This document shows, piece by piece, positions 31,840-56,965 of a DNA stretch of 64,000 bases (positions are counted from its first letter, which is position 1; each line of letters starts with the position of its first letter). Source of the DNA: Acidimicrobiia bacterium. Lineage in GTDB: Bacteria; Actinomycetota; Acidimicrobiia; Spongiisociales; JAHEDJ01. The position numbers and the translations under genes were made by a program. Below the pieces are notes generated by a model. The model was not told where the DNA came from, searched no databases, and was given only the letters and a program-made list of their open reading frames with translations. The stretch lies in assembly GCA_029210695.1 (NCBI GenBank), contig JARGFH010000010.1:1802-65801 (forward strand), read 5' to 3'.

Positions 31840-32658
31840 TCAGCTTCGTCTCCGCTGCAGGCGGATGTTGAGCAGCATGATCGACACGGTGATGAAGAAG
31901 ATCGCCGCCCCGAACACATTCACCTGGGCAGGGACGCCGACGCGGGCGGCACCCCAGATGAAGAGCGGGAATGTGATTGTGTTGCCGGAGTTGAAGTTGG
32001 TGATGATGAAGTCGTCGAATGAGAGGGCGAACCCGAGCAGGAACGCAGCCATGACGCCCGGGAGGATCATCGGCAGCGTCACTTTGCGGAAAGTTGTCCA
32101 CTCGTTGGCGTAGAGGTCCATGGCGGCCTCCTCGAGGTGGCGATCGAATCCGGCCAGCCTCGCTTTGACTGTGACCACGACGTAGCTGATGTTGAACATG
32201 ATGTGGGCGATGACGATGGTTCCGAAGCCACGGGTGACCCCCATGACAATGAAGAGCGCCAGCAGCGAAGATCCCATCACCACCTCAGGGGTGGCCATCG
32301 GTAGGAACAACCCGAGACTGGTCGCCGACCGGCCCCTGAACTGGTAGCGGACTAGGGCGAGCGCGATGAGCGTCCCGAGGAGAGTGGCAATGGCCGAAGA
32401 GATGAAGGCGATCTGCAGACTCGTGACGAGGGAATCGAAGAGCCTCGGGACGCCGAAGGCGTTCTGCCAGTGGTCCAGAGTGAAGCCCTGCCATGTGAAG
32501 TTGTACCGTCCCAGGTGGTCGTTGAACGAGAACAGAATGACGATCGCCACCGGCATGAACAGATATGTCAAGGCGACGACCATGTAGACGGGCAAGATCT
32601 TGCGCTTGATCCACGCCCAGGCCGATGGCTTCCTGCGGGCCGTTGCTACCTGAGCCAT
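31840..32658 (-). CDS. ABC transporter permease (spermidine/putrescine PotC-like)
   Basis: 272 aa, 6 TM helices, EAA-loop region (EAAMDLYANEWTTFRKVTLP). Confidence 0.8.
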   Translation of the reverse strand: MAQVATARRKPSAWAWIKRKILPVYMVVALTYLFMPVAIVILFSFNDHLGRYNFTWQGFTLDHWQNAFGVPRLFDSLVTSLQIAFISSAIATLLGTLIALALVRYQFRGRSATSLGLFLPMATPEVVMGSSLLALFIVMGVTRGFGTIVIAHIMFNISYVVVTVKARLAGFDRHLEEAAMDLYANEWTTFRKVTLPMILPGVMAAFLLGFALSFDDFIITNFNSGNTITFPLFIWGAARVGVPAQVNVFGAAIFFITVSIMLLNIRLQRRRS

Positions 32659-33555
32659 CTACGCCACCAGATCCTCGGTGCCGGAAGCCCGGACGTAGGG
32701 GATGATGATCGCCAGGATCACCAGCATCAGCGAGAACGACAGGGCAGCTGCAGTCGGGTAGTCCACGATGCGGAGGAACCGGTTGTCGATGATGTTGCCG
32801 ACCATCAGCCGCTGCGGATTGCCGAGCAGGCTCGCGTTGACGAAATCGCCCGCCGCCGGGATCAGGGTCAGCAGCGTTCCGGCCACGATCCCCGGGAGGG
32901 ACAACGGCAGCGTGACCTTCCGAAAGGCGGTGATCGGCTTCGCATACAGATCATTGGCCGCCTCGATCAGTGACGGGTGAATCTTCTCCAGCGACACGTA
33001 GATCGGCAGGGTCATAAAGGCCAGGAAGTTGTAGGTGATGCCGGCCACGACCGCCGATCCGGTGGCGAGGATTCGTCCGGTCGGCGAGATGATGTGCAGC
33101 GTCTTGAGGGTTTCGACGACGAAGCCGCTGTCGGCCAGGATGACCTTCCAGGCCAGCGTTCGGAGGAGGAACGGAGTCAGGAACGGCATCAGCACGAGTA
33201 CCAGCAGCAGGTTCTTGTATTTCCCTCCCCGAAATGCGATGCCGTAGGCGAGCGGATAGGCGATGACGAGTGCCAGCGCGGTTGCCGCTCCCGCATAGAG
33301 GAACGAGCGAAGGAAGTGCGAGCCTGCCAACGCGAAGGCGTCGGCGTAGTTCTCCCATCGGAACGTCTGCGTGTAGCCCGTCTGGTAGGTCCCTTCCTGC
33401 AGGGAGATACCGACCAGCTGGATCATGGGGGCTATGTAGAAAATGGCCAGCCACAAACCGCCGGGGAGCAGCAGCAGGTATGGAACGGCCTTCCGGCGGC
33501 GGGCGGCCTTGCGGGCGCCGACGTTGACCAGTGGAGCGGCTTCCTCAGTCGTCAT
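32659..33555 (-). CDS. ABC transporter permease (PotB-like)
   Basis: Start at MTTEEAAPL, overlapping the ATPase gene end by about 11 nt. [23 protein letters not shown] motif. Confidence 0.8.
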   Translation of the reverse strand: MTTEEAAPLVNVGARKAARRRKAVPYLLLLPGGLWLAIFYIAPMIQLVGISLQEGTYQTGYTQTFRWENYADAFALAGSHFLRSFLYAGAATALALVIAYPLAYGIAFRGGKYKNLLLVLVLMPFLTPFLLRTLAWKVILADSGFVVETLKTLHIISPTGRILATGSAVVAGITYNFLAFMTLPIYVSLEKIHPSLIEAANDLYAKPITAFRKVTLPLSLPGIVAGTLLTLIPAAGDFVNASLLGNPQRLMVGNIIDNRFLRIVDYPTAAALSFSLMLVILAIIIPYVRASGTEDLVA

Positions 33556-34666
33556 GGATAACGAAACTCCGTTCGGGATGCCAGCCGAGGGAGACTTCCT
33601 CGCCTTGCGCGAAGCGATCGCCCGTGAGGTTTTGCACGACGGCGCTGAGGTCACCCGCCGTGTTGGTCCGCACCACGTAGTGGGTACTGACCCCGATGAA
33701 CGATGCGTCCAAGATCCGGCCGGTGAGGACATTGGGTGGGATGTCGCCGCTTCCATGCCGGTAGACGTTCAACTTCTCGGGCCTTACTCCGACTCGGAGT
33801 CCGCTGGTTTCTGCGCCGAGCGCGGTTGGCGGCACGAAGATGGTCGTTCCGTCGGCAGTTGCGACCGATCCGGCGGCCCGGTCGACCACCGACACCGGCA
33901 TCAGGTTGGAACCTCCGAGGAAGTTGGCGACGAACGCGGTCCTCGGGTCCTCGTATATCTCGGCGGGGTCGCCCATCCGTTCGATCTTCCCTTTGTTCAT
34001 CACGGCGATGGTGTCGGCCATGGTCATGGCCTCTTCCTGATCGTGCGTCACGTGGATGAACGTGATGCCGACCTCCTGCTGGATCCGCTTTAGTTCTATC
34101 TGCATCTCTTTGCGGAGCTTCAGATCGAGCGCGCCGAGCGGCTCATCGAGTAGCAGGACTCGCGGATGGTTGATCAGGGCGCGCGCCAGGGCAACCCGCT
34201 GCTGTTGTCCACCGGACAGTTTGGCGGGATGCCGGTTATCGAGGCCCGACAGTTGCACGAGAGACAACATCTCGGCGACCCGTCGCTCCAGGTCACCTTT
34301 GTCGACGTTGGTCCGGCGAAGGCCGAATGCGACGTTCTCGAAAACCGATAGGTGCGGAAAGAGGGCGTAGCTCTGGAAGACCGTGTTGACGGGCCGCCGG
34401 TAGGCTTTCAGACCCGTTACGTCGTCGCCGTGCAGGTTGATGCTGCCTTGGGTGGGGTCTTCGAAACCGCCGATCATGCGAAGCGTTGTGGTCTTGCCGC
34501 AGCCGGATGGTCCGAGGAGGGCGAAGAACTTGTTCTCGCCGATGGAGAGCGTCAGGTTGTCGACGGCCAGGACGTCGCCGAACCGCTTGGTGATGTTGAA
34601 GAGTTCGACGGCGGCGGGTTCGGATGGTCCGAACCCGCCTTCCGTCGTTGCGACCGAATCGATCAC
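33545..34666 (-). CDS. ABC transporter ATP-binding protein (PotA-like, with C-terminal TOBE domain)
   Basis: Walker [10 protein letters not shown], signature [15 protein letters not shown], Walker [12 protein letters not shown]. Confidence 0.85.
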   Translation of the reverse strand: MIDSVATTEGGFGPSEPAAVELFNITKRFGDVLAVDNLTLSIGENKFFALLGPSGCGKTTTLRMIGGFEDPTQGSINLHGDDVTGLKAYRRPVNTVFQSYALFPHLSVFENVAFGLRRTNVDKGDLERRVAEMLSLVQLSGLDNRHPAKLSGGQQQRVALARALINHPRVLLLDEPLGALDLKLRKEMQIELKRIQQEVGITFIHVTHDQEEAMTMADTIAVMNKGKIERMGDPAEIYEDPRTAFVANFLGGSNLMPVSVVDRAAGSVATADGTTIFVPPTALGAETSGLRVGVRPEKLNVYRHGSGDIPPNVLTGRILDASFIGVSTHYVVRTNTAGDLSAVVQNLTGDRFAQGEEVSLGWHPERSFVIHDD

Positions 34667-34669: not shown

Positions 34670-35944
34670 CTATCCACCGGTGACGGCGGCGAAGAGCTCG
34701 TTGAGCTCGATCTCCTCTTCTTCGCTGAGGTCTCTGAAGATGTGGGTCTTGGCCAGAGTCGCCTCATCCGGGAAGATGAGCGGGTCGTCGGCGATTCCCG
34801 CCAGCTCTTCGTCGTCCATTTCTGTACCGAGCTGGCGGAGGGCTTCCTGCGCGCCGGCGACCGGGCAGATGTAATTGACCCAGCTCTCGATCTTGGCCGC
34901 CACGACCGGGTCGTAGACGTAGTTCATGAACGCTTCGGCTTCGGCCTTGTTGGTGGCGCCCTTGGGGATCAGCATGTTATCCGACCACAACATCAGGCCC
35001 TCTTCCGGAATCAGGAACTGGAGGTCGGGGTTGTCGATTTGCAGCTGGATGATGTCACCGGACCAGGCAAACGCGGCGGCCAGGTTGCCGGAGGCGAGCT
35101 CACCCGTGTAGTCGTTGCCGAGGAACTGACGGATCTGTCCGTTGTCCACGTTCTCCTGGATCTTGTCCATCGCTTGCCGTGCCTCGTCCATGGTGAACGT
35201 TGCCGGATCGAGGCCCATGCCGAGCATCACCAGCCCGAGAGTGTCACGCATCTCGGTCAGCAAACTGACGCTGCCGGCGATGGCCGGATCGAAGATGTCG
35301 TTGATTGATGACAGCTCGCCACCGGTCAATGCAGGGTTGTATCCGATGGCGGTGAAGCCCGACTGCCACGGCAGGGTATAGGTGCGATCGGGGTCGAATC
35401 CCGGGCTCTCGAGCGCAGCTACCAGGTTGGCTGCGTTGGGGACGTTGGCTTTGTTGATCTCATCGACCCATCCGAGCTGGATGAAGCGGGCCGCCATCCA
35501 GTCGGTCAATACTGCGATGTCGCGGCCGATGTTCTCCCCGGCGCTCAGAGGAGCCTGATACTTGCCGAAGAAGCCGTCGTTGTCGTTGACTTCTTCGATG
35601 TACTCGAGCTCAATCCCCGTTTCGGCCATGAAGTCGTCGAGCGAGGAGGTCTCGAAGTAGCTGTCGTCCCCGCCCGGATCGATGTAGAAGGGCCAGTTGG
35701 CGATGACGAGTTTCTTCGGGCCCGACGCAGCGGTGGTGGCGGTGCCTCCGGTGCCGGCCAGCGTGGTGGCGGTTTCAGAACCGTCAACGCCGCAGGCGGC
35801 CAGCAGGGCGGGGCCACCGATCAAGAACAGGCCGGTTCCTCCTGCTTTCCTGAGGAACTCGCGCCGGTCGATGCCTTGCCTGGATAGTTCCCTCATCAGG
35901 GCATCTCTGTTGCCGCGTCGCTGTGATGGTCGCTTATTGGTCAT
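34670..35944 (-). CDS. ABC transporter substrate-binding lipoprotein (PotD/PotF polyamine-binding family), Tat signal
   Basis: SRREFLRKAGGTGL twin-arginine motif followed by lipobox LLAACG. Start at MTNKRP. Confidence 0.75.
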   Translation of the reverse strand: MTNKRPSQRRGNRDALMRELSRQGIDRREFLRKAGGTGLFLIGGPALLAACGVDGSETATTLAGTGGTATTAASGPKKLVIANWPFYIDPGGDDSYFETSSLDDFMAETGIELEYIEEVNDNDGFFGKYQAPLSAGENIGRDIAVLTDWMAARFIQLGWVDEINKANVPNAANLVAALESPGFDPDRTYTLPWQSGFTAIGYNPALTGGELSSINDIFDPAIAGSVSLLTEMRDTLGLVMLGMGLDPATFTMDEARQAMDKIQENVDNGQIRQFLGNDYTGELASGNLAAAFAWSGDIIQLQIDNPDLQFLIPEEGLMLWSDNMLIPKGATNKAEAEAFMNYVYDPVVAAKIESWVNYICPVAGAQEALRQLGTEMDDEELAGIADDPLIFPDEATLAKTHIFRDLSEEEEIELNELFAAVTGG

Positions 35945-36293: not shown

Positions 36294-36773
36294 ATGGCGC
36301 AGAACACGGTGGCGAAACAACAACGGTCACGACTCGACGAGACGGACAGAGCCATCATCCGCCGTCTCCAAAGCGACGGCCGCATGCCGTTTTCGAGGCT
36401 CGGACCGCTCGTTGAGCTCTCCCCGGCGGCCGTCCGGCAGCGCGTATTGCAGCTCATGGAAGATGGAGTCATGTCCATCGTGGCGGTCACAGATCCGACT
36501 GCCATCGGCCATCGTGTTCAGGTGATGCTCGGTATCAAGGTCCAGGGCGACATCGACCGAGTGGTCGGGGACCTCGAAGCTCAGCCTGAAGTCGTGTATC
36601 TGGTCGTAACGGCGGGCCGTTTCGACCTGCTTGCCGAGATCGTATGCGAGGACACCACGCGACTGCTTGAGATCCTGCAGGGAATCCGTATGCAACCGGG
36701 CGTGCAGTCGGCGGAGGTCTTCTCTTATCTCCGCCTCGCCAAACAGACCTACAACTGGGGTGTACCGGAATGA
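36294..36773 (+). CDS. Lrp/AsnC family transcriptional regulator
   Basis: N-terminal HTH (LDETDRAIIRRLQSDGRMPFSRLGPLVELSPAAVRQRV) plus C-terminal RAM domain. Divergent from the ABC operon. Confidence 0.8.
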   Translation: MAQNTVAKQQRSRLDETDRAIIRRLQSDGRMPFSRLGPLVELSPAAVRQRVLQLMEDGVMSIVAVTDPTAIGHRVQVMLGIKVQGDIDRVVGDLEAQPEVVYLVVTAGRFDLLAEIVCEDTTRLLEILQGIRMQPGVQSAEVFSYLRLAKQTYNWGVPE

Positions 36774-36819
36774 ACCACCCGTCTTTGAGAACGACCACGA
36801 CCACCCGCGGAGGAATCAG

Positions 36820-38181
36820 ATGACCGCCCACATCGACCGAGATCGCGTCGAGCGTCTCACGAAGCAGATGGAAGAGAAACTCCTGGCACAGACTCGCCGG
36901 TCGGGGGAGTTCGTGGAGGAGGCCAAGCGAGTGCTGCCGGCCGGCGTCGCCTCTTCGTTCCAGGACCAACCTCCGCATCCGGTGTACATCGTCGAAGGGC
37001 ATGGTTCGCGCGTCGTAGATCTCGACGGCAACGACTATGCCGACTATCACAACGGCTTCGGCGTGATGGTCGTTGGCCACGCGCATCCGGTGATTGCGGG
37101 CGCTATCGCGGTCGCGGCTCACAAGGGAACCCATTTTGCGGCGCCGAATCAATCGGCGGTGCGGGTGGCAACGGAACTCTCCCGGAGGTTCCGCCTGCCC
37201 AAAGTCCGTTTCTCGAATTCGGGTACCGAAGCGACGCTCGACGCCGTCCGGCTGGGCCGGGCCTTCACCGGGAAAGATGCCATCGTCAAGATCGAGGGCT
37301 CATATCACGGGCATCATGATGCCGTAATGGTGTCGGTAGGGCCGGCCGCCGACAAGATGGGGCCAAGGGCGCATCCGGTCTCTGTTCCACAGACCGCCGG
37401 AATCCCATCCGCGTTGCTGGACCTCACCGTGGTCATCCCGTTCAACGACCCCGACGCCCTGGACGCAGTGCTCACCGAACACAGTGATATCGGGACGATG
37501 ATCATCGAACCGATCATGCTCAACATCGGAGTCGTTCCCCCGCTGGAAGGCTATCTCGAAGCGGTGCGCGAGATTACCCGGAAACATGGCGTCGTTCTGA
37601 TCTTCGATGAGGTGAAGACGGGAGCAACCATCGCGGCAGGCGGGGTGGTCGAACGCTACGGGGTGGTGCCGGATCTCATCGCGCTGGCCAAAGCGACGGG
37701 AGGCGGCACACCGATCGGTGCGGTGCTCGGCACCGATGAGATCATGGCTCAGATCAGCGACGGGACGGTGACGCAGATCGGGACGTTCAATGGGAATCCG
37801 CTCACCATGGCGGCGGCCGAGGCGACACTGACCCAGGTCCTCACCCCAGGCGCCTATCAGCGCCTCGAGCAAGCCGGCGATCGGATTTTGGCCGGATGTC
37901 AGGACGTGGTCGATCGCTACGACCTGCCTGCCTACGCGGTCGGTATGTCCTCCAAGGGCTGCGTCATGTTCTCCACCGAGCGGGTGGTGGACTACCGGTC
38001 GTACATCTCCGGGTTCGACGAGGGCCTCAACTACCTGGGTTGGCTGTACCACATGACCAACGGCGTCTACATGACGCCGGGGGCCGACGAGCAATGGACC
38101 CTCTCGGTTGCGCACTCGGACGAGGAACTCGACCACTACGTCGCGGTCTTCGAGGAGTTCGCCAAGGATGTGACTTCCTGA
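36820..38181 (+). CDS. class-III (aspartate aminotransferase family) PLP-dependent aminotransferase, GSA-aminomutase-like
   Basis: ATG 36820 with GGAGG RBS. Family signatures DYHNGFGVMVVGHAHP and VLIFDEVKTG (PLP-Lys region). Confidence 0.8.
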   Translation: MTAHIDRDRVERLTKQMEEKLLAQTRRSGEFVEEAKRVLPAGVASSFQDQPPHPVYIVEGHGSRVVDLDGNDYADYHNGFGVMVVGHAHPVIAGAIAVAAHKGTHFAAPNQSAVRVATELSRRFRLPKVRFSNSGTEATLDAVRLGRAFTGKDAIVKIEGSYHGHHDAVMVSVGPAADKMGPRAHPVSVPQTAGIPSALLDLTVVIPFNDPDALDAVLTEHSDIGTMIIEPIMLNIGVVPPLEGYLEAVREITRKHGVVLIFDEVKTGATIAAGGVVERYGVVPDLIALAKATGGGTPIGAVLGTDEIMAQISDGTVTQIGTFNGNPLTMAAAEATLTQVLTPGAYQRLEQAGDRILAGCQDVVDRYDLPAYAVGMSSKGCVMFSTERVVDYRSYISGFDEGLNYLGWLYHMTNGVYMTPGADEQWTLSVAHSDEELDHYVAVFEEFAKDVTS

Positions 38182-38226
38182 AGTCGGAGCTGTGCTGGTG
38201 AGACCACAGCAGGAGCGAGGAGCCCA

Positions 38227-39855
38227 GTGAAACCGGGTCAGCCTGCCGATCTCATTGTCCACGGTGGCACCATCGTGACGGTGGATCGGGACCAACCCGA
38301 AGCCGACCACCTCATTGTCCGGGGTGGAAGGATCGTGGCGATGAGCGGTGGCCTCGACGAGTGGGTAGGTCCCGGGACGGATATCGTCGATCTGGATGGC
38401 CGGATGGTGCTGCCCGGCTTCCAGGACTCCCATGTTCATCCCCCGATTGGTGGGCTGAATCTCCTGCGCTGCAACCTGGCGAACGACCCCGATCGAGGCG
38501 CCTATCTGGACAGCATCCGGCGGTATGCCGACGATCACCCCGAGCGGGAGTGGATTCTGGGAGGCGGCTGGGGCATGGATCACTTCCCCAACGGCATTCC
38601 AACCAGGGACGAACTCGACCGCCTGGTTGCCGACCGCCCGGTATTCCTCGTCAACCGGGACGGCCACGGCGCATGGGTCAACTCGAAAGCTTTGGAACTG
38701 GCCGGTATCGGACGGCACACCGACGACCCGGCCGACGGTCGAATCGAGCGAGACGCCGGCGGAGATCCCATCGGCTGCCTGCAGGAAGGTGCCATGGATC
38801 TGGTCGAGAGGTTGGTGCCTGAGACAACGGATACCGAACTGCAACAGGCACTGACCAAAGGGCAGAGCTACCTGTTGTCGCTGGGGATCACTGCCTGGCA
38901 GGACGCCTGGGTAACCAGCCAGGTTGAAGAGGCATATCGAACTCTTGCAGCGGACGGGAGTCTGAAAGCCCGGGTGGTCGGCGCGCTCTGGTGGGAACGG
39001 GATCGAGGCGAAGAGCAGATCGAAGAGCTCCAGCGGAGGAGGGCAAGGGGGCCGGCCGGGAGATTCAAACCCGGCGCAGTGAAGATCATGCTCGACGGCG
39101 TCGCCGAGAACTTCACGGCCGCGCTGCTCGAGCCGTACCGCGGCGCAGACGGCCGGCCAACCAAGAACGCCGGCCTCGACTTCATTGACCCGTCGCGGCT
39201 CGGCCGATACGTAGCGCGGTTGGACGCCGCCGGGTTTCAGGTCCACTTCCATGCCATCGGCGATCGCGCCGTCCGAAACGCCCTGGACGCCGTCGACCAG
39301 GCCAGACGGGTCAACGGCGCATCGGATCACCGCCATCACATTGCCCATCTCCAGCTGGTTCACCCGGACGACATCCCTCGATTCCGCCTGCTCGACGTGG
39401 TGGCCAACGCGCAGCCGTTCTGGGCGGTCCACGAGGACCAGCAGGATCACCTCACTGCTCCGTTTCTGGGTCCACACCGCAGCGGTTGGCAATACCCGTG
39501 GCACAGCCTGGTGCGCAGTGGCGCTCGCCTTGCCTTCGGAAGCGACTGGTCGGTATCCACCCCGAACCCCCTGGCGATCATCGAAACCGCGGTGAGGCGT
39601 GTGTCGCCGTTCGATCGAGCTGCCGCCGAGTTCTATCCCGAGGAAAGGCTTGATCTCGGAATTGCCTTGCAGGCGGCCACCAGAGGAAGCGCCTACGTGA
39701 ATCATCTCGATCACCTGACCGGGACTCTGGTCCCCGGCAAACTGGCCGACTTCGTCGTCCTGGATCGTGACATCCGCCACAGCCCCGTGGATGAGATCGC
39801 TGATGCAGGAGTGGAGATGACGTTCATCGAAGGCGAGTGCGTTTATGAGAACTGA
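38227..39855 (+). CDS. amidohydrolase family protein (amidohydrolase-3 / metal-dependent hydrolase)
   Basis: N-terminal PGFQDSHVHP metal-binding HxH motif. FHAIGDRA and AFGSDWSV(ST) C-terminal metal ligands. 542 aa. Confidence 0.75.
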   Translation: MKPGQPADLIVHGGTIVTVDRDQPEADHLIVRGGRIVAMSGGLDEWVGPGTDIVDLDGRMVLPGFQDSHVHPPIGGLNLLRCNLANDPDRGAYLDSIRRYADDHPEREWILGGGWGMDHFPNGIPTRDELDRLVADRPVFLVNRDGHGAWVNSKALELAGIGRHTDDPADGRIERDAGGDPIGCLQEGAMDLVERLVPETTDTELQQALTKGQSYLLSLGITAWQDAWVTSQVEEAYRTLAADGSLKARVVGALWWERDRGEEQIEELQRRRARGPAGRFKPGAVKIMLDGVAENFTAALLEPYRGADGRPTKNAGLDFIDPSRLGRYVARLDAAGFQVHFHAIGDRAVRNALDAVDQARRVNGASDHRHHIAHLQLVHPDDIPRFRLLDVVANAQPFWAVHEDQQDHLTAPFLGPHRSGWQYPWHSLVRSGARLAFGSDWSVSTPNPLAIIETAVRRVSPFDRAAAEFYPEERLDLGIALQAATRGSAYVNHLDHLTGTLVPGKLADFVVLDRDIRHSPVDEIADAGVEMTFIEGECVYEN

Positions 39856-39865
39856 AAGGTGACAA

Positions 39866-48011: not shown

Positions 48012-50021
48012 TCATTCCCGCCGGAACGGGACCGGAACCATCGACTCAGAATCCATCTCTCGCGCACAACGATGTCCTGAATACACCGAAGTTGCGATCG
48101 TCCCGGGGGCGAGGCAATCCCCGATTCGCTGGATGTCGATGCGATTGACCAGCGCGTAATAGAGATCATCCTGAGGGATCCGTGACGTGATCATGACGAC
48201 GTTCGCAGCCTCGACTTCTCGCGAGTGCCCCGTGTGGATGCTCTTCAGCGACACCGTGTGCCCGGCGACGCCGGCGAGTGTGGTGCCGGTCGCCAGCACT
48301 ATTCCCAGCCCGAGAACCCGCTCCTGAATCCGGTGCTGTTCCTCCGTGTGAGTGGTCCAGGTAGAGACTTCGTTGGCCGGCGTCACCAGGGTGACGTCGA
48401 AGCCGGTTCGGCGAAGCTTCTCGGCAATGACACCGCCCATGTAGTAGTGATCGTCGTCGTAGACGACGACGGGACCGGTCGGCATCACCCCGGCCAGGAT
48501 GTCGTCCGGCGTGATGACCGACGGGCCATCCCAGCCTGGAATCGGCTCTTCGAGCGAGCGACCCGTGCCATCTCGACGCCACTTGGCACCGGTGGCGATC
48601 ACAACGCGATCGGCGCCGAACTCCAGGATCTGCTCTTCGTCGACCACGCTCTCGAGGTAGAACTCGACATTCGGCAGTTTCCCGATTTGATTGAGCCGCC
48701 AGTCGCGGACGCGAGCCCATTGGGCGAGGCCGGGCAAGGAGGACTCGAGCGTGACCCGGCCGCCCAACTCACGGCGTGCTTCTGTCAGGGTGACGTCGTA
48801 GCCGCGCTTGCCGAGCGAGACGGCGGCCTCGAGTCCTGCAGGGCCGGCTCCGACGATCAGAACGGATGAATCGGATCCCTTCGCCGGGATGTACTCGGGG
48901 TGCCATCCTTTCCGCCACTCCTCTCCCATGGTGGGGTTTTGTGTGCAGCGGATCGGCGTCCCCGTCTGATCGCCCGTGTAGCAAATGTTGCAGCCGATGC
49001 ACTCGCGGATCTCGTCTTCCCGTCCTTCTGAGATCTTATGGGGTATGAATGGGTCGGCAATCGAGGGACGAGCTGCGCCGACCAGATCGATTACGCCCTG
49101 CCGAACGAGGCGCAACATCGTCTCAGGGGAAGTGAAACGTCCAACGCTGACGACCGGTTTGTTGGTCACGCTCTTGACCCACGACATCGTCGCTTCGAGC
49201 CCGGCCTCGGGCACGAAGCGCGAAGTTCCCATTTCGAAGGTGTAGTCGTGCACGGTGATATCCCACAGGTCGGGCAGCTCTGCGAGGAGCCGGATCATCT
49301 CCCGCGGCTCAGCGGTTTCCTGATCGTCGTCAGGGCCCCCGGTGCTGGCGGAGAAGCGCACGGCCACCGCACAGGTGTCTCCGACGGCTTCCTTCGTCTC
49401 CTCGATCAACTCGCGCAGCAGCCGTGCGCGGTTCTCGAGCGAGCCGCCGTACTCGTCGCCCCTTTGATTCGATGGGAGCAGGAACTGGCGAATGAGATAC
49501 CAGTGAGCCGCGTAGACGTAAACGATGTCGAAGCCGGCGCGCTGTGCCCTACGGGCGGCTTCGAGGTGCCAGCGCTTCAGCTCTCGAATGTCGGCCTTGT
49601 CCATCGCCCGCGTTTGCACCGGGTCCCACACTCCGGCCGGCCGGCTGAAGGGGCCGAGGGGCGCCTCACGGGAATAGTGGTTGGCGCTGGCCGCCCCGCC
49701 GTGCCACAACTCGACACCTGCAAGAGCACCGTGTTCGTGAATCCTGTCGACCGTCATCGCCAGGGCCGTCACGTCCTGGTCGTCCCAAAGCGATGCGGAC
49801 GGGAAAGGCTCGTCGTCCGATGAGGGGTGGATTGAGCAGTACTCAGTACAAACCGTGCCCCACCCGCCCTCGGCCTTGACCCCGCGCAACCCGGCGAGTG
49901 TCTGGGGACGGCGATACCCCATGCCCGTGCAGTGGGGCACCTGATAGAAGCGGTTCGGAGCCGTCACAGGTCCAATCCGGACGGGCTCAAACAGGACGTC
50001 AAATCGGGGGTCGCGGGGCAT
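48012..50021 (-). CDS. trimethylamine/dimethylamine/histamine-dehydrogenase-family flavo-iron-sulfur oxidoreductase (OYE-like FMN domain + 4Fe-4S + FAD/NAD(P)-binding domain)
   Basis: N-terminus MPRDPRFDVLFEPVRIGPVTAPNRFYQVPHC. Cys cluster ECIGCNICY. C-terminal Rossmann VLIVGAGPAGLEAAVSL. About 669 aa. Confidence 0.75.
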   Translation of the reverse strand: MPRDPRFDVLFEPVRIGPVTAPNRFYQVPHCTGMGYRRPQTLAGLRGVKAEGGWGTVCTEYCSIHPSSDDEPFPSASLWDDQDVTALAMTVDRIHEHGALAGVELWHGGAASANHYSREAPLGPFSRPAGVWDPVQTRAMDKADIRELKRWHLEAARRAQRAGFDIVYVYAAHWYLIRQFLLPSNQRGDEYGGSLENRARLLRELIEETKEAVGDTCAVAVRFSASTGGPDDDQETAEPREMIRLLAELPDLWDITVHDYTFEMGTSRFVPEAGLEATMSWVKSVTNKPVVSVGRFTSPETMLRLVRQGVIDLVGAARPSIADPFIPHKISEGREDEIRECIGCNICYTGDQTGTPIRCTQNPTMGEEWRKGWHPEYIPAKGSDSSVLIVGAGPAGLEAAVSLGKRGYDVTLTEARRELGGRVTLESSLPGLAQWARVRDWRLNQIGKLPNVEFYLESVVDEEQILEFGADRVVIATGAKWRRDGTGRSLEEPIPGWDGPSVITPDDILAGVMPTGPVVVYDDDHYYMGGVIAEKLRRTGFDVTLVTPANEVSTWTTHTEEQHRIQERVLGLGIVLATGTTLAGVAGHTVSLKSIHTGHSREVEAANVVMITSRIPQDDLYYALVNRIDIQRIGDCLAPGTIATSVYSGHRCAREMDSESMVPVPFRRE

Positions 50022-50147
50022 TTCTTCCTCCAAGCTCTGGCGTCCGACCCGCTGAGACTCCGACGCTTCGCAATGAGCGAGCCGGTAGCCCATGGCGGGC
50101 GGAGGTTGTGGTGGGGACGGCCCGAGGGCCGTCCCCACCAACGGCTC

Positions 50148-51260
50148 CTAGCTTTTCACCTCGTTGAGGGCGTCCGAGTAGTTGGTCTCGAAGTCGCCGG
50201 TATCGGCGAGGAACTCGAGGCGCTCGAACACCTCGTCGGGGGGATAGATCGTCTCATCGTCGAGAATCTCGGGATCAACGAAGGGCTCCGACGCCGCGTT
50301 CGGGCTGGCGTAGAAGTTGAAGTTCGTCAACGCGGCTCCATTCTCAGGGTCGAGAAGGAAGTTGATGAAGGTGTGGGCGGTGCATGGAGCATCGGCGGTG
50401 ATGGGAATGGCCATCGTGTCAACCCAGGCCACCGCCCCTTCCTTGGGAATGCCGTATCCGAACTCCTCATAGGCGTCGTACTCGTCGTCGGACGCTTCGT
50501 CGAATGCGGCGAAGAAGTCGCCGGACCAGCCGTGCGCGACCGTGGTCTCACCGGATACGAGCAGGTCTTCGAACTGATCCGAATCGAACAGCTTGACGCG
50601 GTCCTTGATGCCTTGGAGCAGTTCGACCGCTTCATCCAGTTCTGCCTGGTCGGTCGTGTTGATGGAGTAGCCCAGATACTTGAGTGCGATACCTATCGTT
50701 TCCCGCGGGTCGTTGAGAAGGGAGATGCTGCCGGACACATCGGGAGCGAAGGCGGGGTCGAAGATGATCTCCCAACTCACCTCCCAGTCTTCCGGTACAA
50801 CGTCGTAGCTGTAGCCGATACCGCTGGTGCCCCACTGGTAGGGAACCGAGTATTCGTCGGTCTCGTCGTATGGGAGGCCGGTGAAGGCAGGATCGAGGTT
50901 GCTCAGATTCGGGATCGCATCCTTGTTGAGTGCAATGATCAGGCCTTCCTCCGACATGATCGTCACCGTGTAGTCGGACGGCACGACCAGGTCGTAGTCA
51001 TTGCCACCCGATTCGATCTGCGGGAGCATCGCCTCATTCGAGTCGTAGAACGATTCGTTGACCGCTACGGCGTACTCCGCCTCGAAGGCGGTGATCAGTT
51101 CCGGGTCGATGTACTCAGACCAGTTGTATAGGTCCAGGTCACCATCGACGTCTCCGACCTCACAGGCGGCGGCTGCGTCCACCAGTTCGGCATTCCCGTC
51201 CCCCCCACAAGCGGCCGCAAGTAATGCGAACGCCAATCCGATCATCAGTATTCGTCTCAC
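50148..51260 (-). CDS. ABC transporter substrate-binding lipoprotein (PotD/PotF polyamine-binding family)
   Basis: MRRILMIGLAFALLAAACGG signal/lipobox. LYNWSEYIDPELI is typical of PotD-family binding proteins. Confidence 0.8.
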   Translation of the reverse strand: MRRILMIGLAFALLAAACGGDGNAELVDAAAACEVGDVDGDLDLYNWSEYIDPELITAFEAEYAVAVNESFYDSNEAMLPQIESGGNDYDLVVPSDYTVTIMSEEGLIIALNKDAIPNLSNLDPAFTGLPYDETDEYSVPYQWGTSGIGYSYDVVPEDWEVSWEIIFDPAFAPDVSGSISLLNDPRETIGIALKYLGYSINTTDQAELDEAVELLQGIKDRVKLFDSDQFEDLLVSGETTVAHGWSGDFFAAFDEASDDEYDAYEEFGYGIPKEGAVAWVDTMAIPITADAPCTAHTFINFLLDPENGAALTNFNFYASPNAASEPFVDPEILDDETIYPPDEVFERLEFLADTGDFETNYSDALNEVKS

Positions 51261-51275
51261 TGCCCACTCCTCCTA

Positions 51276-52067
51276 TCAATTCCGTCTCTGCAAGGCTAGT
51301 GAACTGAGTACCAGGACCACGGAAGCCGTCAACATGAGCGTTGAGACGGCGTTTATCTCAGGGGTGACACCCCGCTTGATCAGACCGAAGACGAACGTCG
51401 GCAAAGTATCCGGGCCCTTGACGAACTGGGTGATGACCACATCGTCTAGCGAAAGGGTCAACGCCAGCAAGGCTCCGCCCAATACCCCCGGCATGATCAA
51501 CGGCAACGTGATCCTCCTGAAAGCCTGCCACCGGCCCGCGTAGAGGTCGGCCGCAGCTTCCTCGAGCGCCGGGTCCAGATTGGCGAGGCGAGCTCGCACG
51601 ACGATTGAAACGAACGAAATGTTGAAGGCGATATGGCTGAGGACAATGGTCGTGATACTCAGTTGTTGGCCAAGGGAAGTGAAAAAGACGAGCAACATGG
51701 CGGCCATGGTCACGTCCGGGATGATGACCGGAAGATAAAGCAGCGCGTCGAACGTCCGCTTGCCGAGCCAGCGTTTGTAGCGTTCGAGCGCCAGCGCCGC
51801 GGCGGTCCCAAGGACCGTTGAAATCACGGTGGAAATCGCCGCTACCTGCAGAGACGCCCACAGTGCAGCCATCAGGTTGTCATTGGCGAACATCTGTCGG
51901 TACCACCGCAGCGACAGAGCCTCCCACGTGAAGAACCGACTCTCATTGAACGAGAACACAATCAACACGAGGATCGGGAGATAGAAGAACAGATACACGA
52001 ACCAGGCGTGGCCTTTGAGGATCCGATCGAGGCGGCGGGTGAGAGCCGATCCGTTGCGAGTGGTCAT
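51276..52067 (-). CDS. ABC transporter permease (PotC-like)
   Basis: Start MTTRNGS, overlapping the upstream permease stop (TCAT/ATGA). EAAADLYAGRWQAFRRITLP EAA motif. Confidence 0.8.
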   Translation of the reverse strand: MTTRNGSALTRRLDRILKGHAWFVYLFFYLPILVLIVFSFNESRFFTWEALSLRWYRQMFANDNLMAALWASLQVAAISTVISTVLGTAAALALERYKRWLGKRTFDALLYLPVIIPDVTMAAMLLVFFTSLGQQLSITTIVLSHIAFNISFVSIVVRARLANLDPALEEAAADLYAGRWQAFRRITLPLIMPGVLGGALLALTLSLDDVVITQFVKGPDTLPTFVFGLIKRGVTPEINAVSTLMLTASVVLVLSSLALQRRN

Positions 52068-52945
52068 AGCGTCTTTGCTCCCGACCGGAAGTAGAAGACG
52101 GTGGCGACCAGCATGACCATCATGATCGCCATCGATAGGGACGATCCGAGCGGCCAGTTGCGGGCGGTCAGAAACTGATTGACGACGTAATTGCCGATGA
52201 GCGTGGTCTTCGCTCCGCCCAGGATGTCCGGCGTCACGTAGGCGCCCAGGCTCGGGATGAAGACGAGAATCGAACCGGCGATGATGCCCTGCTTGGTGAG
52301 CGGCAGCGTGACCTTGCGAAACGCCACCCATCCGGATGCATACAGATCTCGGGCCGCCTCGACCAGCGACCAGTCGAGTCGCTCGATGGAGGCGTACAAC
52401 GGCAGCACCATGAACGGCAGGAAGCCGTACACCAGGCCGATGTAGACGGCCGGCAGCGTGAACAGCATGGAATCCCACAAGTTCAAGAACCTGCCCAGTG
52501 CGGTGATCAGACCGTCCTCGCCGAGCAGAACCCGCCAGGCATAGGTGCGGACCAGGAAGTTGGTCCAGAACGGGATCATCACGAAGACAAGCAGGATGTT
52601 TCGCATCTTCTCGGATCTGGTGGCGATGTAGTAGGCGAATGGATAGCCGACCAGCAAGCAGAACACAGTCGTGAGAACGGCGACGATCAGCGACCGCGCA
52701 AAGATCGAACGGATCAGATCATCGGTGAACAGCTTCGTGATCGAGTCGAGATTCCAGCCTTCGAGCTTGGGCATGCCGGTGCGGGACCGGCTGGCGAAGG
52801 AGTACACACCGATGATGAGCAGCGGCAGTGCGAATAGGAACAACAGGTATATGTAGGAAGGCAGAGCCAGGAACAAACCGCGGCGCGACTCCGCCCGGTC
52901 GGCAGCGGCCTCCAGTTCGGCGGTGACCGGCCCGTCCGTCGTCAT
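52064..52945 (-). CDS. ABC transporter permease (PotB-like)
   Basis: 293 aa, 6 TM helices. [20 protein letters not shown]. Confidence 0.8.
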
Positions 52946-54009
52946 TCGGTCAACGCCTCAGCCGAATCCGGGTGAAAGGCGGCGATGATGGGGGCGCCTT
53001 CCGCGAAGCGTTCCCGGCCCGGCCGATTCTCCTCTCGTGCGTCGACGATCGAGTGGCCGAAGTCGACTTCGTAGAAGTGTGAGTCGCCGAAGTAGAGCCT
53101 GCGGACGATCGTGCCGGCCAGCTTGTTGAAGTGCCCAGGTACGGAGTCCTCCGTGTGATGCAGGTCGATCTTCTCGGGTCGCAGGTTGAGCGTCACGGCG
53201 GTCCCGGCACCCGAATGAGTTCTGGCTTTGACGATGCTGCCGTCTGCCAGCTTCACGATCCCGGACTCAACAACGGTGCCCGAAATCAAATTCGTTTCGC
53301 CGATGAACTCAGCGACGAACCGCGTGTTGGGTCGCTCGTATATCTCTTCCGAGGGAGCGACCTGAAGCAGTTGGCCCTCATTCATCACCGCAATGCGGTC
53401 GGACATGGTCAGCGCTTCTTCTTGATCGTGCGTCACGTAGACGAAGGTGATACCCACCTCGCGCTGGATCTCTTTGAGTTCGAGTTGCATGGCTTGCCGC
53501 AACTTGAGGTCGAGGGCGCCGAGTGGCTCATCGAGCAGGAGGACCTGCGGCCGATTGACCAGTGCCCTGGCGAGGGCAACTCGCTGCTGCTGACCTCCGG
53601 AGAGCATTCCCGGTCGGCGATTCTCCATTCCCGAGAGCCGGACGAGATCGATTGCCTCACCAACCCGTCGTCTTGTTGCATCTTCGGAGATCTTCTGCAT
53701 CTGAAGACCGAACGCAACGTTGCCGGACACCGTCATGTGCGGAAACAGTGCATATGACTGGAAGACGGTGTTGACCGGTCGCTTGTTGGGCGGACGCAAC
53801 CCCATCTCTTCGCCATGGATGGTGATGCTGCCCTCGGTTGGGTATTCGAGTCCGGCGATCATCCTCAGTGTGGTGGTCTTCCCACATCCAGACGGCCCGA
53901 GCAATGAGAAGAATTCGCCGTCTGTGATCTCTAGGTCGATGCTTTCGACGGCTACGACGTCGCCGAACCGCTTCGTCACTCCCTTGATGCCGACTGCTGC
54001 TGCCGTCAT
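52942..54009 (-). CDS. ABC transporter ATP-binding protein (PotA-like)
   Basis: Walker [10 protein letters not shown], signature [15 protein letters not shown], Walker [13 protein letters not shown]-terminal TOBE-like domain. Confidence 0.85.
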
Positions 54010-55445
54010 TCAGTGCGGCCGATGTCGAATACGACCGTTTGCAGGTCGGTGAACTCCGTGATTCTTCCACGCCCCCAGCCGGTGTCCGTCCCGGCCGCTC
54101 CTCCGAACGGCTGGAAGGTCTCCCAGAAGTCGGTCGAGTCATTGACAACGACCGTACCCGACCGGATTCGGTCGGCGTACCAAAAAGCCTTGGAGAGACT
54201 CTGGGTGAATACAGCAGCCTGCAGGCCCAACCTCGAACGGTTGGCGATCGCCACCGCTTCGGCGTCATCTGCGGCGCGCAGGATGGGAAGGACCGGCCCA
54301 AACGACTCCTCCTGCGAGAGAGCGCTTTCCTCAGGCACGTTGTCGACGATCGTCAGGTCGTAGTAGAGGTCGGTCGGGTGTCCCGGTGATCTTCCTCCGC
54401 CGACCAGTACCCGCCCACCCCGGTCGCGGGCGTCGGCCAGGTGGCGGTCCATCTTTGCCGCGGTCGGCTCGTTGTTCAGCGGACCCATGTTTGTAGTCTC
54501 GTCGAATGGATCTCCCAGCTTGACGTCGGACGCAGCTGCGACTGCCAACTCGACGAACCGATCGTGAACCTCGTCGAGCACGATGACACGCTCGGTGGCG
54601 CAGCAGACCTGGCCTGCGTTGTAGTAAGCCCCGTACACCGCCAGGGGAGCGGCCGCCTCGACATCGGCATCTGCCGTGACGATTGTCGGTCCGTTGCCGG
54701 ACATCTCCATGATCGACCGCTTCACCCCCATTTGGGCGATGATCCGCTTGCCGGTTGCCGACGATCCGGTGAAACCGATTGCGTCTACTCCGTCGTGAGT
54801 GACCAGCGCCTCGCCTACCCGGCCATCTCCGGGTAGGACGGAGATTGCCCCCTTCGGTACTCCGGCCTCGTCGAATGCCTCTGCCAGTTTCAACAGTGCC
54901 CACGAGGTGAACTCAGGTGGTTTGACGATGACGGAGTTGCCGGTGGCGAGGCCCGGGCCGACGTACTCGAGGGGTATGGTCACCGGGAAGTTCCAGGGCG
55001 TGATCGCCGCCCACACGCCGATCGGCCGGTGGAAGGTGAACATGCGTTTGTTGCGGTCGGAGGTGGGGATCACCTCACCGGTCAGCCGTTTCACATCTTC
55101 GGCCGCGTTGTAGAAGTACTGGTTGGCCTCCGCGATGTCGGCAAGTGACTCAGCGTGATAGGGCTTGCCCTGCTCGAGGGTCTGGATTCGGGCAATCTCT
55201 GATTCCAGCGGTTCGATGGCCGCCGCTATCCGGAGACAGAGATCCGCTCTCTCGAAGGCCGACCAGTGCCGCATTTCGTCGGCCGCCCGGCGAGCTGCCG
55301 TGACTGCGCGATCAACATCCGCGTTGGATGGAAGCGGAACCGTCGCAATGTGCTCGCCCGTCACGGGGGAGATGAGGTCGTGGGCGTGATCGCCGGTACC
55401 TTCGGTCCATTCGCCGCCAAGGTACATCTTCAGAGTTGGTGCCAT
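54006..55445 (-). CDS. NAD(P)-dependent aldehyde dehydrogenase
   Basis: 479 aa, with an ALDH-family N-terminal region; catalytic nucleophile LTLELGGKSP was not found. Confidence 0.7.
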
Positions 55446-55636
55446 CGCTCTCCAGAATCAGGTCGCCTCATTATTGCCGATGGGAGCGGCTCCTCGCTTC
55501 GCCCGGCGCGGGGTTCCGGCCTGGCTCGAGCATCGGTAGCATTGTGATCGCCACGCAGTCAACGCTTCCGTCTGAGTTTTTCGTGTCGCTTTGTCCGCCG
55601 ACGCTGAGTCATTGAAATCGAAAGTCCGTTGTATCC

Positions 55637-56965
55637 ATGGCAGGAGGAGAACTCATGGGGTTGCAGGGTGAACAGACGGCGGCCTGGTTCCGTCGAGCCA
55701 AGGCGGCGCTGGTCAATGGCGTGTCGAGCCAGTTCCGATACTGGGGCGATGACGACACGATGGTCATCGACCACGGGGAAGGTGGCCACGTCATCGACAT
55801 GGATGGCAATCGCTACATCGACTACCAGCTCGGCTTCGGTCCCGTCATCCTTGGTCATGGCGATCCGGATGTTGCCGCCGCCGTGTCGGAAGCTGCTCTC
55901 GCCGGCACAACGTTCGCGATGACCCAGCGCCGGGAAGTCGAAGCTGCAGAGCAGTTTCTAGCTGCCGTTCCATGGGCTGAGCAGCTTCGTTTCGGCAACA
56001 CCGGCACCGAGGCGACCATGCACGCCATCCGGCTGGCGAGAGGCGTCACCGGTCGTGATGTCATCCTCAAGTTCGAGGGCCAGTATCACGGCGTCCACGA
56101 CTATGTCATGTTCTCCACAGCCGGTGCTCCGCCCGCTGCACTCGGTTCGCGCTCGCAGCCGGTTCCCTGGCAGAGTTCGTCCGGCATTCCGGAGACCATC
56201 CGGTCGTACATACGGGTGCTGCCGTTCAATGACTTGGAAGGTGTCGAGCGGCTATTCAGAGACCAGGGTCACCAGATTGCGGGCGTCATCGTTGAGCCGA
56301 TGCTCGGCAACGCTTTTGGCATCATGCCGGAAGACGGTTTCCTCGAGGGCCTGCGCCGGTTGTGCACGGACTACGGGTCCGTGTTGATCTTCGATGAGGT
56401 CAAGACGGGCTTCCGCATGGGCCTCGGTGGAGCCGGTGAGTACTTCGGAATCGATCCCGATCTCGGGACCTTTGCGAAAGCCATGGGGAACGGGTTTCCT
56501 GTGGCCGCGATTGCCGGGCGAGGCGACGCTATCAAGGGATGGGCGGAGGGCGGGATCGCTCAGGCAGGAACCTACTCGGCCAACGGAGTCGCGGTGGCGG
56601 CGGCCGGCGCCACAATCGCCAAGCTGGCGACGGGTGAGCCGTATACCCGGATCGAGACGGTCGGACGGATGCTGATGGAAGGCTTCGCCGCTATTTGCGC
56701 ACAGCAGAGCGTGCCGGCCCATGTTCCGGGTGTCCCCGCCATGTTCGGGCTCGTCTTCTCCGACGAGCCGCCTCGTGATTTCCGGGACGCGGCCAACCAT
56801 GACGAGGAGTTGTACGGGGACGTCATCCGCAGGATGATCGGCAAGGGAGTGTTTCCGGTCGATGATGCGCTCGAGCCGTGGTTCCTCTGTGCCGCCCACA
56901 CCGAAGAAGACGCGGCGAAGACCCTGTCCGTGTTCGAGGAGTCGTTGCGAGAGGCCCGAGCCTGA
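55637..56965 (+). CDS. class-III PLP-dependent aminotransferase (GSA-aminomutase-like), paralog of 36820..38181
   Basis: DYQLGFGPVILGHGDP and VLIFDEVKTG. Start may be the internal Met at 55655. Confidence 0.8.
   Translation: MAGGELMGLQGEQTAAWFRRAKAALVNGVSSQFRYWGDDDTMVIDHGEGGHVIDMDGNRYIDYQLGFGPVILGHGDPDVAAAVSEAALAGTTFAMTQRREVEAAEQFLAAVPWAEQLRFGNTGTEATMHAIRLARGVTGRDVILKFEGQYHGVHDYVMFSTAGAPPAALGSRSQPVPWQSSSGIPETIRSYIRVLPFNDLEGVERLFRDQGHQIAGVIVEPMLGNAFGIMPEDGFLEGLRRLCTDYGSVLIFDEVKTGFRMGLGGAGEYFGIDPDLGTFAKAMGNGFPVAAIAGRGDAIKGWAEGGIAQAGTYSANGVAVAAAGATIAKLATGEPYTRIETVGRMLMEGFAAICAQQSVPAHVPGVPAMFGLVFSDEPPRDFRDAANHDEELYGDVIRRMIGKGVFPVDDALEPWFLCAAHTEEDAAKTLSVFEESLREARA

Follow-up and report, generated by a model that had tools for sequence, protein, structure and literature searches.

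We propose that a gene cluster of about 25 kb (positions 31840-56965), found in the metagenome-assembled genome of a marine member of the Acidimicrobiia, was joined from at least two modules and serves to import and oxidize polyamine-type amines, with N-methyl groups being removed onto folate. Based on the sequence, we give this reading a probability of roughly 60%. The cluster lies in a stretch of 64,000 nucleotides that was analyzed as a whole and is called the window here. As a first-pass annotation of this DNA had recognized, the gene content is that of amine catabolism. It includes polyamine-type ATP-binding cassette (ABC) uptake (transporters pot1 and pot2), folate-dependent N-demethylases (FAD-GcvT #1 and #2, where FAD is flavin adenine dinucleotide), flavin amine oxidoreductases (DAO1, DAO2, and a flavin- and iron-sulfur-containing, or flavo-FeS, dehydrogenase), an aldehyde dehydrogenase, omega-type transaminases (AT1 and AT2), and an Lrp regulator. 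These enzyme families are all well known; it is their combination, together with the conserved DAO1-DAO2 pair, that is undescribed.

Polyamines and methylated amines are important labile sources of nitrogen and carbon in seawater, where the uncultured Acidimicrobiia are abundant. In the cluster, folate-dependent N-demethylases appear to be tied to polyamine-type uptake and amine oxidation, and the association is conserved in populations on more than 100 contigs. The cluster, therefore, points to an undescribed substrate class or route. Genes were called from a map of open reading frames (ORFs) and their translations, domains were assigned by Pfam scan, and families were assigned by NCBIfam scan against the model cutoffs. 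An exact-sequence look-up with FAD-GcvT #1 matched no recorded contig, and synteny was, therefore, read from the loci of homologs, which are labeled L001 onward.

The gene set recurs in related genomes

The best evidence from gene context for placing the demethylases with the polyamine-type genes comes from one compact operon and from a gene set that persists through rearrangements. The compact operon, found at L001-3, has the order pot(A-B-C-D)-Lrp-AT / DAO1-DAO2-GcvT#1 and a single demethylase gene, and its population is present on 107 contigs (orthology by BLAST). The GcvT#1 gene lies 27 bp downstream of DAO2 and adjoins a PotD2-type transporter, with no pot1 present; this arrangement ties the demethylase to the polyamine-type module. 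In other marine relatives (L016-L020), both FAD-GcvT genes, both PuuB-like DAO genes, the flavo-FeS amine dehydrogenase, the aldehyde dehydrogenase, and AT2 recur in several orders alongside one pot2-type transporter and one aminotransferase gene. The AT2 orthologs in L017 and L020 are 67-70% identical. The same island as in the window was found in a 94% identical genome (L006/L013), and in an 86% relative (L007/L008), the island lacks the DAO1-DAO2 pair between its two FAD-GcvT genes.

A synteny check had been proposed in the first-pass annotation, and it was informative. Parts of the cluster occur separately and in differing orders, and the same families recur around orthologs of DAO2. This gene (43880-45259, plus strand) is the most widely conserved anchor, with orthologs of 55-95% identity in 80 GTDB species genomes. 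Among 52 DAO2-ortholog loci that were at least 12 kb long, an Lrp ortholog (~50% identity) was next to DAO2 in 30, pot genes were found in 27, an aldehyde dehydrogenase in 23, a DAO1 ortholog in 12, a FAD-GcvT gene in 7, the flavo-FeS gene in 6, and the amidohydrolase gene of the island in 3. Because the families also co-occur near DAO2 orthologs of other species-level genomes, their grouping goes beyond chance. In soil and freshwater Actinomycetota, the DAO2 orthologs have as neighbors an Lrp ortholog and a transporter of either the pot1 or the pot2 type. DAO1 adjoins DAO2 in L001-3 and in L013-L022.

The best explanation for these patterns is that the island is a mosaic of at least two older modules and not one duplicated block. 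The module that recurs in several marine relatives (module B) would consist of FAD-GcvT #1, DAO1, DAO2, FAD-GcvT #2, the histamine-dehydrogenase-like flavo-FeS enzyme, potA2B2C2D2, the aldehyde dehydrogenase, and AT2. The other (module A: potD1A1B1C1, Lrp, AT1, and the amidohydrolase) appears to be an add-on, which is found with DAO2 in other Actinomycetota.

Folate-dependent N-demethylases

FAD-GcvT #1 (39866-42361) and FAD-GcvT #2 (45378-47849), both on the plus strand, encode proteins of ~820 amino acids in the family of tetrahydrofolate (THF)-dependent amine N-demethylases. This family includes dimethylglycine dehydrogenase (DMGDH), dimethylglycine oxidase (DMGO), and 4-methylaminobutanoate oxidase (MABO). 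Both proteins have the architecture DAO-FAO_M-GCV_T-GCV_T_C, with all four Pfam domains above cutoff and near full-length coverage. The TWHAAG motif, with the His for covalent FAD, and the equivalents of the DMGO His225/Tyr259 dyad are kept in #1 and #2. The roles of these residues, the 8-alpha-N3-histidyl FAD His and the catalytic His225/Tyr259 dyad, follow PMC5082570.

Identity and tree comparisons, which the first-pass annotation had suggested for the DMGO-like and DAO proteins, placed #1 and #2 in separate clades and DAO1 and DAO2 at 31% identity to E. coli PuuB. Judged by alignment score, MABO is the closest characterized relative of both demethylases among the references tested. It is 40% identical to each of them (565 and 607 bits), and the scores for rat/human DMGDH (439 and 484 bits) and for DMGO (384 and 385 bits) are lower. 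The MABO sequence used was that of Paenarthrobacter nicotinovorans pAO1 (NZ_CP089294). An identity of 40% to MABO is insufficient to transfer its substrate specificity. JGI names the FAD-GcvT #1 orthologs after MABO, and #1 has thousands of homologs, many of them 79-94% identical, from marine metagenomes; orthologs with 80-94% identity are widespread in marine Acidimicrobiia.

The neighborhoods of more distant homologs were also inspected. The genes around an Aureimonas homolog of #1 are gabT, a succinate-semialdehyde dehydrogenase gene, and electron transfer flavoprotein (ETF) genes, a context that by analogy fits the demethylation of an N-methyl omega-amino acid to 4-aminobutyrate (GABA). 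The nearest Paracoccus homolog of #2 lies ~7 kb from soxBDA genes, and a Phaeobacter homolog adjoins hydantoinase genes in a context suggestive of sarcosine formation. An S. meliloti homolog is found between catabolic genes for taurine and for 2-aminoethylphosphonate (AEP). Otherwise, the neighborhoods of the Paracoccus and Thermomicrobium homologs offered little or nothing on function. A tandem FAD-GcvT pair was seen on a plasmid of the marine alphaproteobacterium Rhodobacteraceae SC52 (L098 7520-12436), with ~50% and ~32% identity to the window enzymes; adjacent pairs, therefore, arise repeatedly in different lineages. The SC52 pair and its neighboring amidohydrolase were considered as a parallel to the cluster and rejected because the amidohydrolase is non-homologous and one member of the pair is only 32% identical.

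Amine oxidoreductases and companion enzymes

The flavo-FeS enzyme (48012-50021, minus strand) belongs to the histamine dehydrogenase/trimethylamine dehydrogenase (TMADH) family of amine dehydrogenases with flavin mononucleotide (FMN) and a [4Fe-4S] cluster. It had been annotated as TMADH-like. The assignment to the flavo-FeS family stood, but TMADH was not the closest relative, as histamine dehydrogenase scored 752 bits and TMADH 553 bits. The match to histamine dehydrogenase 3K30 was full-length (~669 amino acids), with ~57% identity over the first 412 aligned columns. Oxidored_FMN, Pyr_redox_2, and an OYE-like second domain were found, and the ADP-binding/C-terminal nucleotide-binding domains are present. 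So are the Cys for 6-S-cysteinyl-FMN (the equivalent of Cys35 in 3K30) and the iron-sulfur motif CIGCNIC...C.

The substrate pocket was compared with both relatives. Eight residues have been proposed to bind histamine: Gln65, Ile74, Phe77, Glu79, Asn115, Tyr181, Trp267, and Asp358 (PMC10180351). The window enzyme keeps 3/8 (Phe77, Tyr181, and Asp358), and the others are changed (Gln65Tyr, Ile74Asp, Glu79Ser, Asn115Ala, and Trp267Tyr). The aromatic bowl of TMADH, which we take to be Tyr60/Trp264/Trp355 and to bind the trimethylammonium group, reads Tyr/Tyr/Asp in the window enzyme, with only Tyr60 kept (1/3). The pocket is, thus, a hybrid that matches neither histamine dehydrogenase proper nor TMADH proper. 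These residues suggest that the substrate is probably neither histamine nor trimethylamine, and the enzyme is better read as a putative dehydrogenase of a primary or secondary amine rather than a trimethylamine demethylase. Histamine dehydrogenases also oxidize putrescine, agmatine, and 1,3-diaminopropane (PMC10180351).

DAO1 (42409-43815, plus strand) and DAO2 encode PuuB-like FAD amine oxidoreductases with the domain PF01266. The best NCBIfam model for both was TIGR03329, "putative aminophosphonate oxidoreductase," at 221 bits for DAO1 and 230 bits for DAO2, compared to a cutoff of 632.8. A PDB sequence search with DAO2 gave no match at E<=1e-10. Two side observations concern this family. 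The 86% relative L007/L008 carries a different DAO-family gene of 425 amino acids (476-1753) just downstream of potC1, and it is only ~30% identical to DAO2. In L001, a 121-amino-acid gene (12892-13257) downstream of the GcvT#1 ortholog matches DAO2 in two pieces, with 53-58% identity over ~60 amino acids each, and looks like a remnant of another DAO2-type gene.

The NAD(P)-dependent aldehyde dehydrogenase (54006-55445, minus strand; PF00171, 471 bits) is 34% identical to PuuC and reached no NCBIfam equivalog cutoff. The two class-III aminotransferases, both on the plus strand, are 31-32% identical to PuuE. The HemL-like AT1 (36820-38181; PF00202) scored 366 bits with NF000818, below the cutoff of 398, and the HemL/GntE-like AT2 (55637-56965) scored 411.6 bits, above it; the GntE model gave 484 bits for AT2, below its cutoff of 525. 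An Amidohydro_3 metal-dependent hydrolase (38227-39855, plus strand; PF07969, 322 bits) has no characterized close relative, and its only PDB sequence matches were the uncharacterized structural-genomics hydrolases 3ICJ and 3IGH. The Lrp/AsnC regulator (36294-36773, plus strand; HTH_AsnC and AsnC_trans_reg) is divergent from pot1. The amidohydrolase, the flavo-FeS dehydrogenase, the aldehyde dehydrogenase, and the Lrp regulator are present in single copy, as previously annotated.

Two Pot-type transporters

Two complete PotABCD-type transporters with different gene orders had been described in the first-pass annotation, and both were found. Each has an ATPase with a TOBE domain, two permeases, and a PotD/PotF-family protein. 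The genes of transporter 1 are potC1 (31840-32658; PF00528; PotC model, 230 bits, below the equivalog cutoff), potB1 (32659-33558; PF00528; PotB model, 188 bits, below cutoff), potA1 (33545-34666; ABC_tran and TOBE_2), and potD1 (34670-35944; SBP_bac_8, with a Tat-like signal and a lipobox). They lie on the minus strand and are transcribed in the order D-A-B-C. Transporter 2, also on the minus strand, is transcribed A-B-C-D and consists of potD2 (50148-51260), potC2 (51276-52070; PF00528; PotC model, 244 bits), potB2 (52064-52945; PF00528; PotB model, 235 bits), and potA2 (52942-54009). PotA1 and PotA2 both passed the TIGR01187 potA subfamily cutoff of 355.6 bits, with 367.5 and 378 bits.

The two solute-binding lipoproteins were compared with solved relatives. 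PotD2 is a PotD-type polyamine-binding lipoprotein by similarity, scoring 227 bits against 4GL0 and 191 bits against E. coli PotD. It keeps 12/13 of the spermidine contacts described in structure work on E. coli PotD and 10/11 of the PotF contacts, with conservative changes counted as kept. By eye, PotD2 is strikingly rich in Asp and Glu. PotD1 is a divergent member of the PotD/PotF family, with 24% identity to PotD and a score of only 98 bits against the closest PotD-type proteins of solved structure. Its aromatic box and Asp257 are kept, and the equivalents of Thr35/Glu36/Gln327 are Pro/Phe/Phe. Across relatives, the family motif is NWP[F/L/A/E]Y for PotD1 versus NW[S/T/A/P]EY for PotD2.

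Proposed route

All steps of the proposed route are inferred from family membership and gene context. Pot2 would import a spermidine- or putrescine-like polyamine, and Pot1 would take up a related amine whose end is less basic or modified. The PuuB-like DAO1 and DAO2, together with the FMN/FeS amine dehydrogenase, would then oxidize C-N bonds to give amino-aldehydes, which the aldehyde dehydrogenase would convert to omega-amino or omega-methylamino acids. From these, the two MABO/DMGDH-like enzymes may strip N-methyl groups singly as 5,10-methylene-THF, and the class-III transaminases may take off the remaining primary amino groups. The Lrp-type regulator, whose gene is the first in the long plus-strand run, is predicted to control the divergent operons. 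The first-pass annotation had held that the substrate cannot be named from sequence, and our analysis leads to the same position.

Several points weigh against this route. To our knowledge, N-methyl groups are absent from the common marine polyamines, which leaves the two folate-dependent demethylases unexplained by known polyamine chemistry; this is the main weakness of the proposal. No protein of the island reached an NCBIfam equivalog cutoff, and only generic subfamily models were passed (by potA1, potA2, and AT2). There is no homolog of ETF, FolD, or PurU in the window to handle the electrons and C1 units. The list of PotD contacts was validated only by the presence of the expected residue at every listed position of E. 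coli PotD and PotF. Also, a PotD-annotated protein of SAR11 was shown to bind glycine betaine and dimethylsulfoniopropionate (DMSP), not polyamines (PMC11485210), and a Pot-type annotation can, therefore, mislead, especially for PotD1. Finally, the genes may be co-located due to shared regulation rather than membership in a single pathway.

Alternative explanations

The serious rival is a co-location of two or three independent pathways, which we consider possible although on the unlikely side. A polyamine route (pot2, DAO1/2, the flavo-FeS enzyme, the aldehyde dehydrogenase, and AT2) would stand beside a separate route for a methylated osmolyte or amino acid (pot1 and the FAD-GcvT enzymes). 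The second substrate would be a compound such as dimethylglycine, sarcosine, or N-methyl-GABA, and the routes would share a nitrogen-scavenging neighborhood and perhaps a regulator. PotD1 is consistent with this, being only distantly PotD-like and without an acidic residue at the Glu36-equivalent position, and so are the ligands of the SAR11 protein. The Paracoccus homolog of #2 near soxBDA and the Phaeobacter homolog beside hydantoinase genes point the same way, as does a GcvT#1 ortholog that stands without nearby pot or DAO genes (L004). However, in the compact operon at L001-3, the demethylase directly follows DAO1-DAO2 beside a PotD2-type transporter, and the GcvT, DAO, histamine-dehydrogenase-like, aldehyde dehydrogenase, and AT2 genes stay together through several rearrangements. 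Domain scans of the window also found no enzyme for the step from glycine betaine to dimethylglycine.

A more tentative idea, which we rather doubt, is that the cluster catabolizes naturally N-methylated di- or polyamines, such as N-methylputrescine-type compounds or the N-methylated long-chain polyamines of diatom silica, with the chain being cut before MABO-like demethylation. If so, the PuuB-like and histamine-dehydrogenase-like enzymes would cut the chain, the aldehyde dehydrogenase would form omega-(methyl)amino acids, and the MABO-like enzymes would act sequentially to hand the methyl groups on to folate. The methylated or acylated end would be recognized by PotD1, in which a hydrophobic Pro-Phe replaces Thr-Glu. 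This would add a folate-linked demethylation branch that is missing from the known Puu, transaminase, and spermidine-dehydrogenase routes of polyamine breakdown.

The doubled families raise a separate question. In the first-pass annotation, nearly every function was noted to occur twice over ~25 kb, and this doubling is real. Pairwise protein identities are 46% for FAD-GcvT, 34% for DAO, 36% for the aminotransferases, 53% for PotA, 43% for PotB, 42% for PotC, and 27% for PotD. Within the pairs, DNA similarity was detectable only at ~70%, in ~600 bp of potA and in two shorter segments. With such low identities, the pairs are genuine old paralogs and not a collapsed or duplicated assembly; recent identical duplicates, which that annotation had named as a sign of an assembly artifact, were not what we found.

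The annotation had gone on to explain the pairs by an old segmental duplication, in which one ancestral block (pot, aminotransferase, FAD-GcvT, and DAO) was copied within the lineage and the copies then split in function. The presence of four families twice within 25 kb agrees with this, and the two FAD-GcvT enzymes are closer to each other (46%) than either is to MABO, DMGDH, or DMGO. Nevertheless, the copies have nearer relatives outside the lineage than their partners in the island. The 46% between the two FAD-GcvT enzymes is exceeded by the match of #1 to an Aureimonas plasmid protein (51% identity) and by that of #2 to a Paracoccus denitrificans protein (54%). In a neighbor-joining tree of 26 sequences, the two enzymes grouped apart, each in a clade with a proteobacterial relative. 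For DAO2, proteins of Nonomuraea, Cupriavidus, Rhodococcus, and Thermomicrobium reach 46-48% identity and many Actinomycetota proteins reach 55-62%, compared to 34% for DAO1; relatives at 46-62% span other Actinomycetota, Chloroflexota-related bacteria, and Proteobacteria. Pot1 and E. coli PotABCD (50/43/41/34%) resemble pot2 to the same degree.

The layout also speaks against a duplicated block. It reads pot-AT-GcvT-DAO / DAO-GcvT-pot-AT, and the four genes in the middle share one strand; this fits neither a tandem nor an inverted duplication, and the two transporters differ in gene order. Divergence is uneven among the pairs (27-53%). In some relatives, the complete GcvT and DAO pairs are accompanied by only one pot set and one aminotransferase, and elsewhere the DAO1-DAO2 pair occurs with a single GcvT gene. 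Mutual nearest relatives, similar divergence, and colinear order were, thus, all missing from the pairs. The duplication model is already contradicted by tree and synteny, and we consider it very unlikely. Each paired copy appears, by sequence, to belong to a different deep orthogroup, and the best explanation is that the partners of each pair are separate family members of ancient divergence that serve different steps or substrates. As a caution, repeated families in a catabolic island need not mean duplication; in this island, they reflect an assembly of anciently diverged members.

We find it highly improbable that the cluster breaks down aminophosphonates or aminosulfonates, such as N-methylated AEP or N-methyltaurine, with PhnS/PotD-like transporters. 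TIGR03329 is the best model for DAO1 and DAO2, PotA1 and PotA2 score well on the PhnT2 model, and the S. meliloti homolog lies between taurine and AEP genes. Yet the TIGR03329 scores are far under the family cutoff, there is no PhnA or PhnW homolog in the window (PhnX was not searched), an upstream thiamine pyrophosphate (TPP) enzyme is only 28% identical to Xsc, and PotD2 keeps the polyamine contacts of PotD. Least likely of all is a gamma-glutamylation route of the Puu/Pau type with DAO1 and DAO2 as gamma-glutamyl-polyamine oxidases, for despite the identities of DAO1/DAO2 to PuuB and of the aldehyde dehydrogenase to PuuC, the window has no PuuA (glutamine-synthetase-like) or PuuD (tblastn of the E. 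coli PuuA, PuuD, and PuuR proteins against the whole window, E<=1e-3), and none was seen in the syntenic loci.

Other features and borders of the cluster

All 18 genes of the earlier map were present at, or within a few codons of, their mapped positions with the expected domain architectures, as judged from ORFs, translations, Pfam, and NCBIfam. Two starts were corrected and the rest of the map was borne out. The flavo-FeS gene starts at 50021 and not at an upstream TTG, which gives 669 amino acids, as called in relatives, and a GGAGGA ribosome-binding site precedes this start. The start of the Lrp gene is most likely 36294 (159 amino acids, as in L006). In the plus-strand run at 36294-47849, the intergenic gaps are 10-118 bp. 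The end of the aldehyde dehydrogenase gene overlaps the start of potA2 by 4 bp, and AT2 diverges from the aldehyde dehydrogenase gene.

Two intergenic elements were noted. FAD-GcvT #2 and the flavo-FeS gene converge on a 162-bp spacer that contains tandem GTTCTAG-type heptamers (GTTCTAGGTTCTAGGTTCTGGGT) and, 29 nt away, an inverted copy. The inverted repeats in this element (47886-47960) measure 23 nt, with 83% complementarity, and 16 nt, with 94%; it is possibly a small repeat element or a bidirectional terminator. The other element, at 50109-50140 on the minus strand, is a perfect stem of 15 bp with a 2-nt loop (TGGTGGGGACGGCCC TC GGGCCGTCCCCACCA). It lies between potD2 and the flavo-FeS gene, immediately behind the potD2 stop, and has no T-run after it. 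It is probably an intercistronic terminator or an mRNA stabilizer that would raise mRNA levels of the binding protein.

The cluster is chromosomal and bordered by housekeeping genes. Immediately upstream is pyrB (30746-31774), and domain scans of the further flanks identified an ATP-dependent DNA ligase, a SerB-like ACT+HAD protein, and a class II ribonucleotide reductase. Mobile-element genes were not observed, and GC content is even across the window, with a small dip to 0.593-0.604 at 50001-54000 (the pot2 genes) compared to 0.615-0.64 elsewhere in the island. For the upstream carbamoyltransferase, a role as putrescine carbamoyltransferase was weighed and rejected, since it is PyrB and scores above the equivalog cutoff. 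The upstream TPP enzyme (26205-27971) was considered as Xsc and rejected as generic, with 277 bits compared to a cutoff of 676. A third DAO-family ORF (11967-13355, minus strand) adjoins a gene of the CrtI/phytoene-desaturase family (10354-11883); both lie outside the island and are contextually unrelated to it. The class II (B12-dependent) ribonucleotide reductase (60588-63995) has 1135 amino acids, with its barrel domain matched in two stretches and a C-terminal TSCPD domain.

Comparison with known systems

Literature searches on polyamine genes or DMGDH in Acidimicrobiia, on the degradation of methylated polyamines, and on polyamine genes of Streptomyces found no characterized ortholog of the cluster. 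The possibility raised in the first-pass annotation, that orthologous clusters might have a well-characterized and different function, was not borne out in these searches. Its view that the content is not that of the Puu or GbcAB/Sox routes agrees with the absence of PuuA, PuuD, PuuR, and SoxD homologs from the window. SoxB matched only the DAO domains (23-24% identity), and with no match to SoxD, the SoxBDAG subunit set of heterotetrameric sarcosine oxidase is incomplete.

Each part of the cluster can be set beside a characterized system. Pot2 has the gene order of the spermidine-preferential E. coli transporter PotABCD and is 50/43/41/34% identical to its PotA/B/C/D proteins. In contrast, pot1 is ordered D-A-B-C and PotD1 has the Pro/Phe/Phe replacements, and no permease or binding protein of either set reaches an NCBIfam equivalog cutoff. 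The FAD-GcvT enzymes share the four-domain FAD and folate architecture and the TWHAAG His with MABO, DMGDH, and DMGO. In the alignment, the His225 equivalent is kept in both window enzymes and in MABO, and the Tyr259 equivalent is Tyr in all three. MABO differs in that its gene on pAO1 sits between folD and purU, unlike the window genes, and in that the window has two distinct orthogroups in one cluster, amid polyamine-type transporter and amine oxidase genes. The flavo-FeS enzyme has the Cys-FMN, the CxxCxxC...C motif, and the ADP-binding domains that are common to the histamine dehydrogenases (Nocardioides simplex, 3K30; Rhizobium sp., 6DE6) and TMADH (2TMD).

As in the E. coli Puu system, a PuuB-like oxidoreductase, a PuuC-like aldehyde dehydrogenase, and a PuuE-like transaminase are found beside a polyamine importer. 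The window differs from Puu in having two PuuB-like genes and no PuuA, PuuD, or PuuR, and the folate-dependent demethylases and the FMN/FeS amine dehydrogenase belong to the window cluster and not to Puu. By analogy, the cluster resembles a blend of three known systems: the oxidative part of Puu without gamma-glutamylation, the MABO-GABA branch of nicotine catabolism, and an oxidation of the histamine dehydrogenase type.

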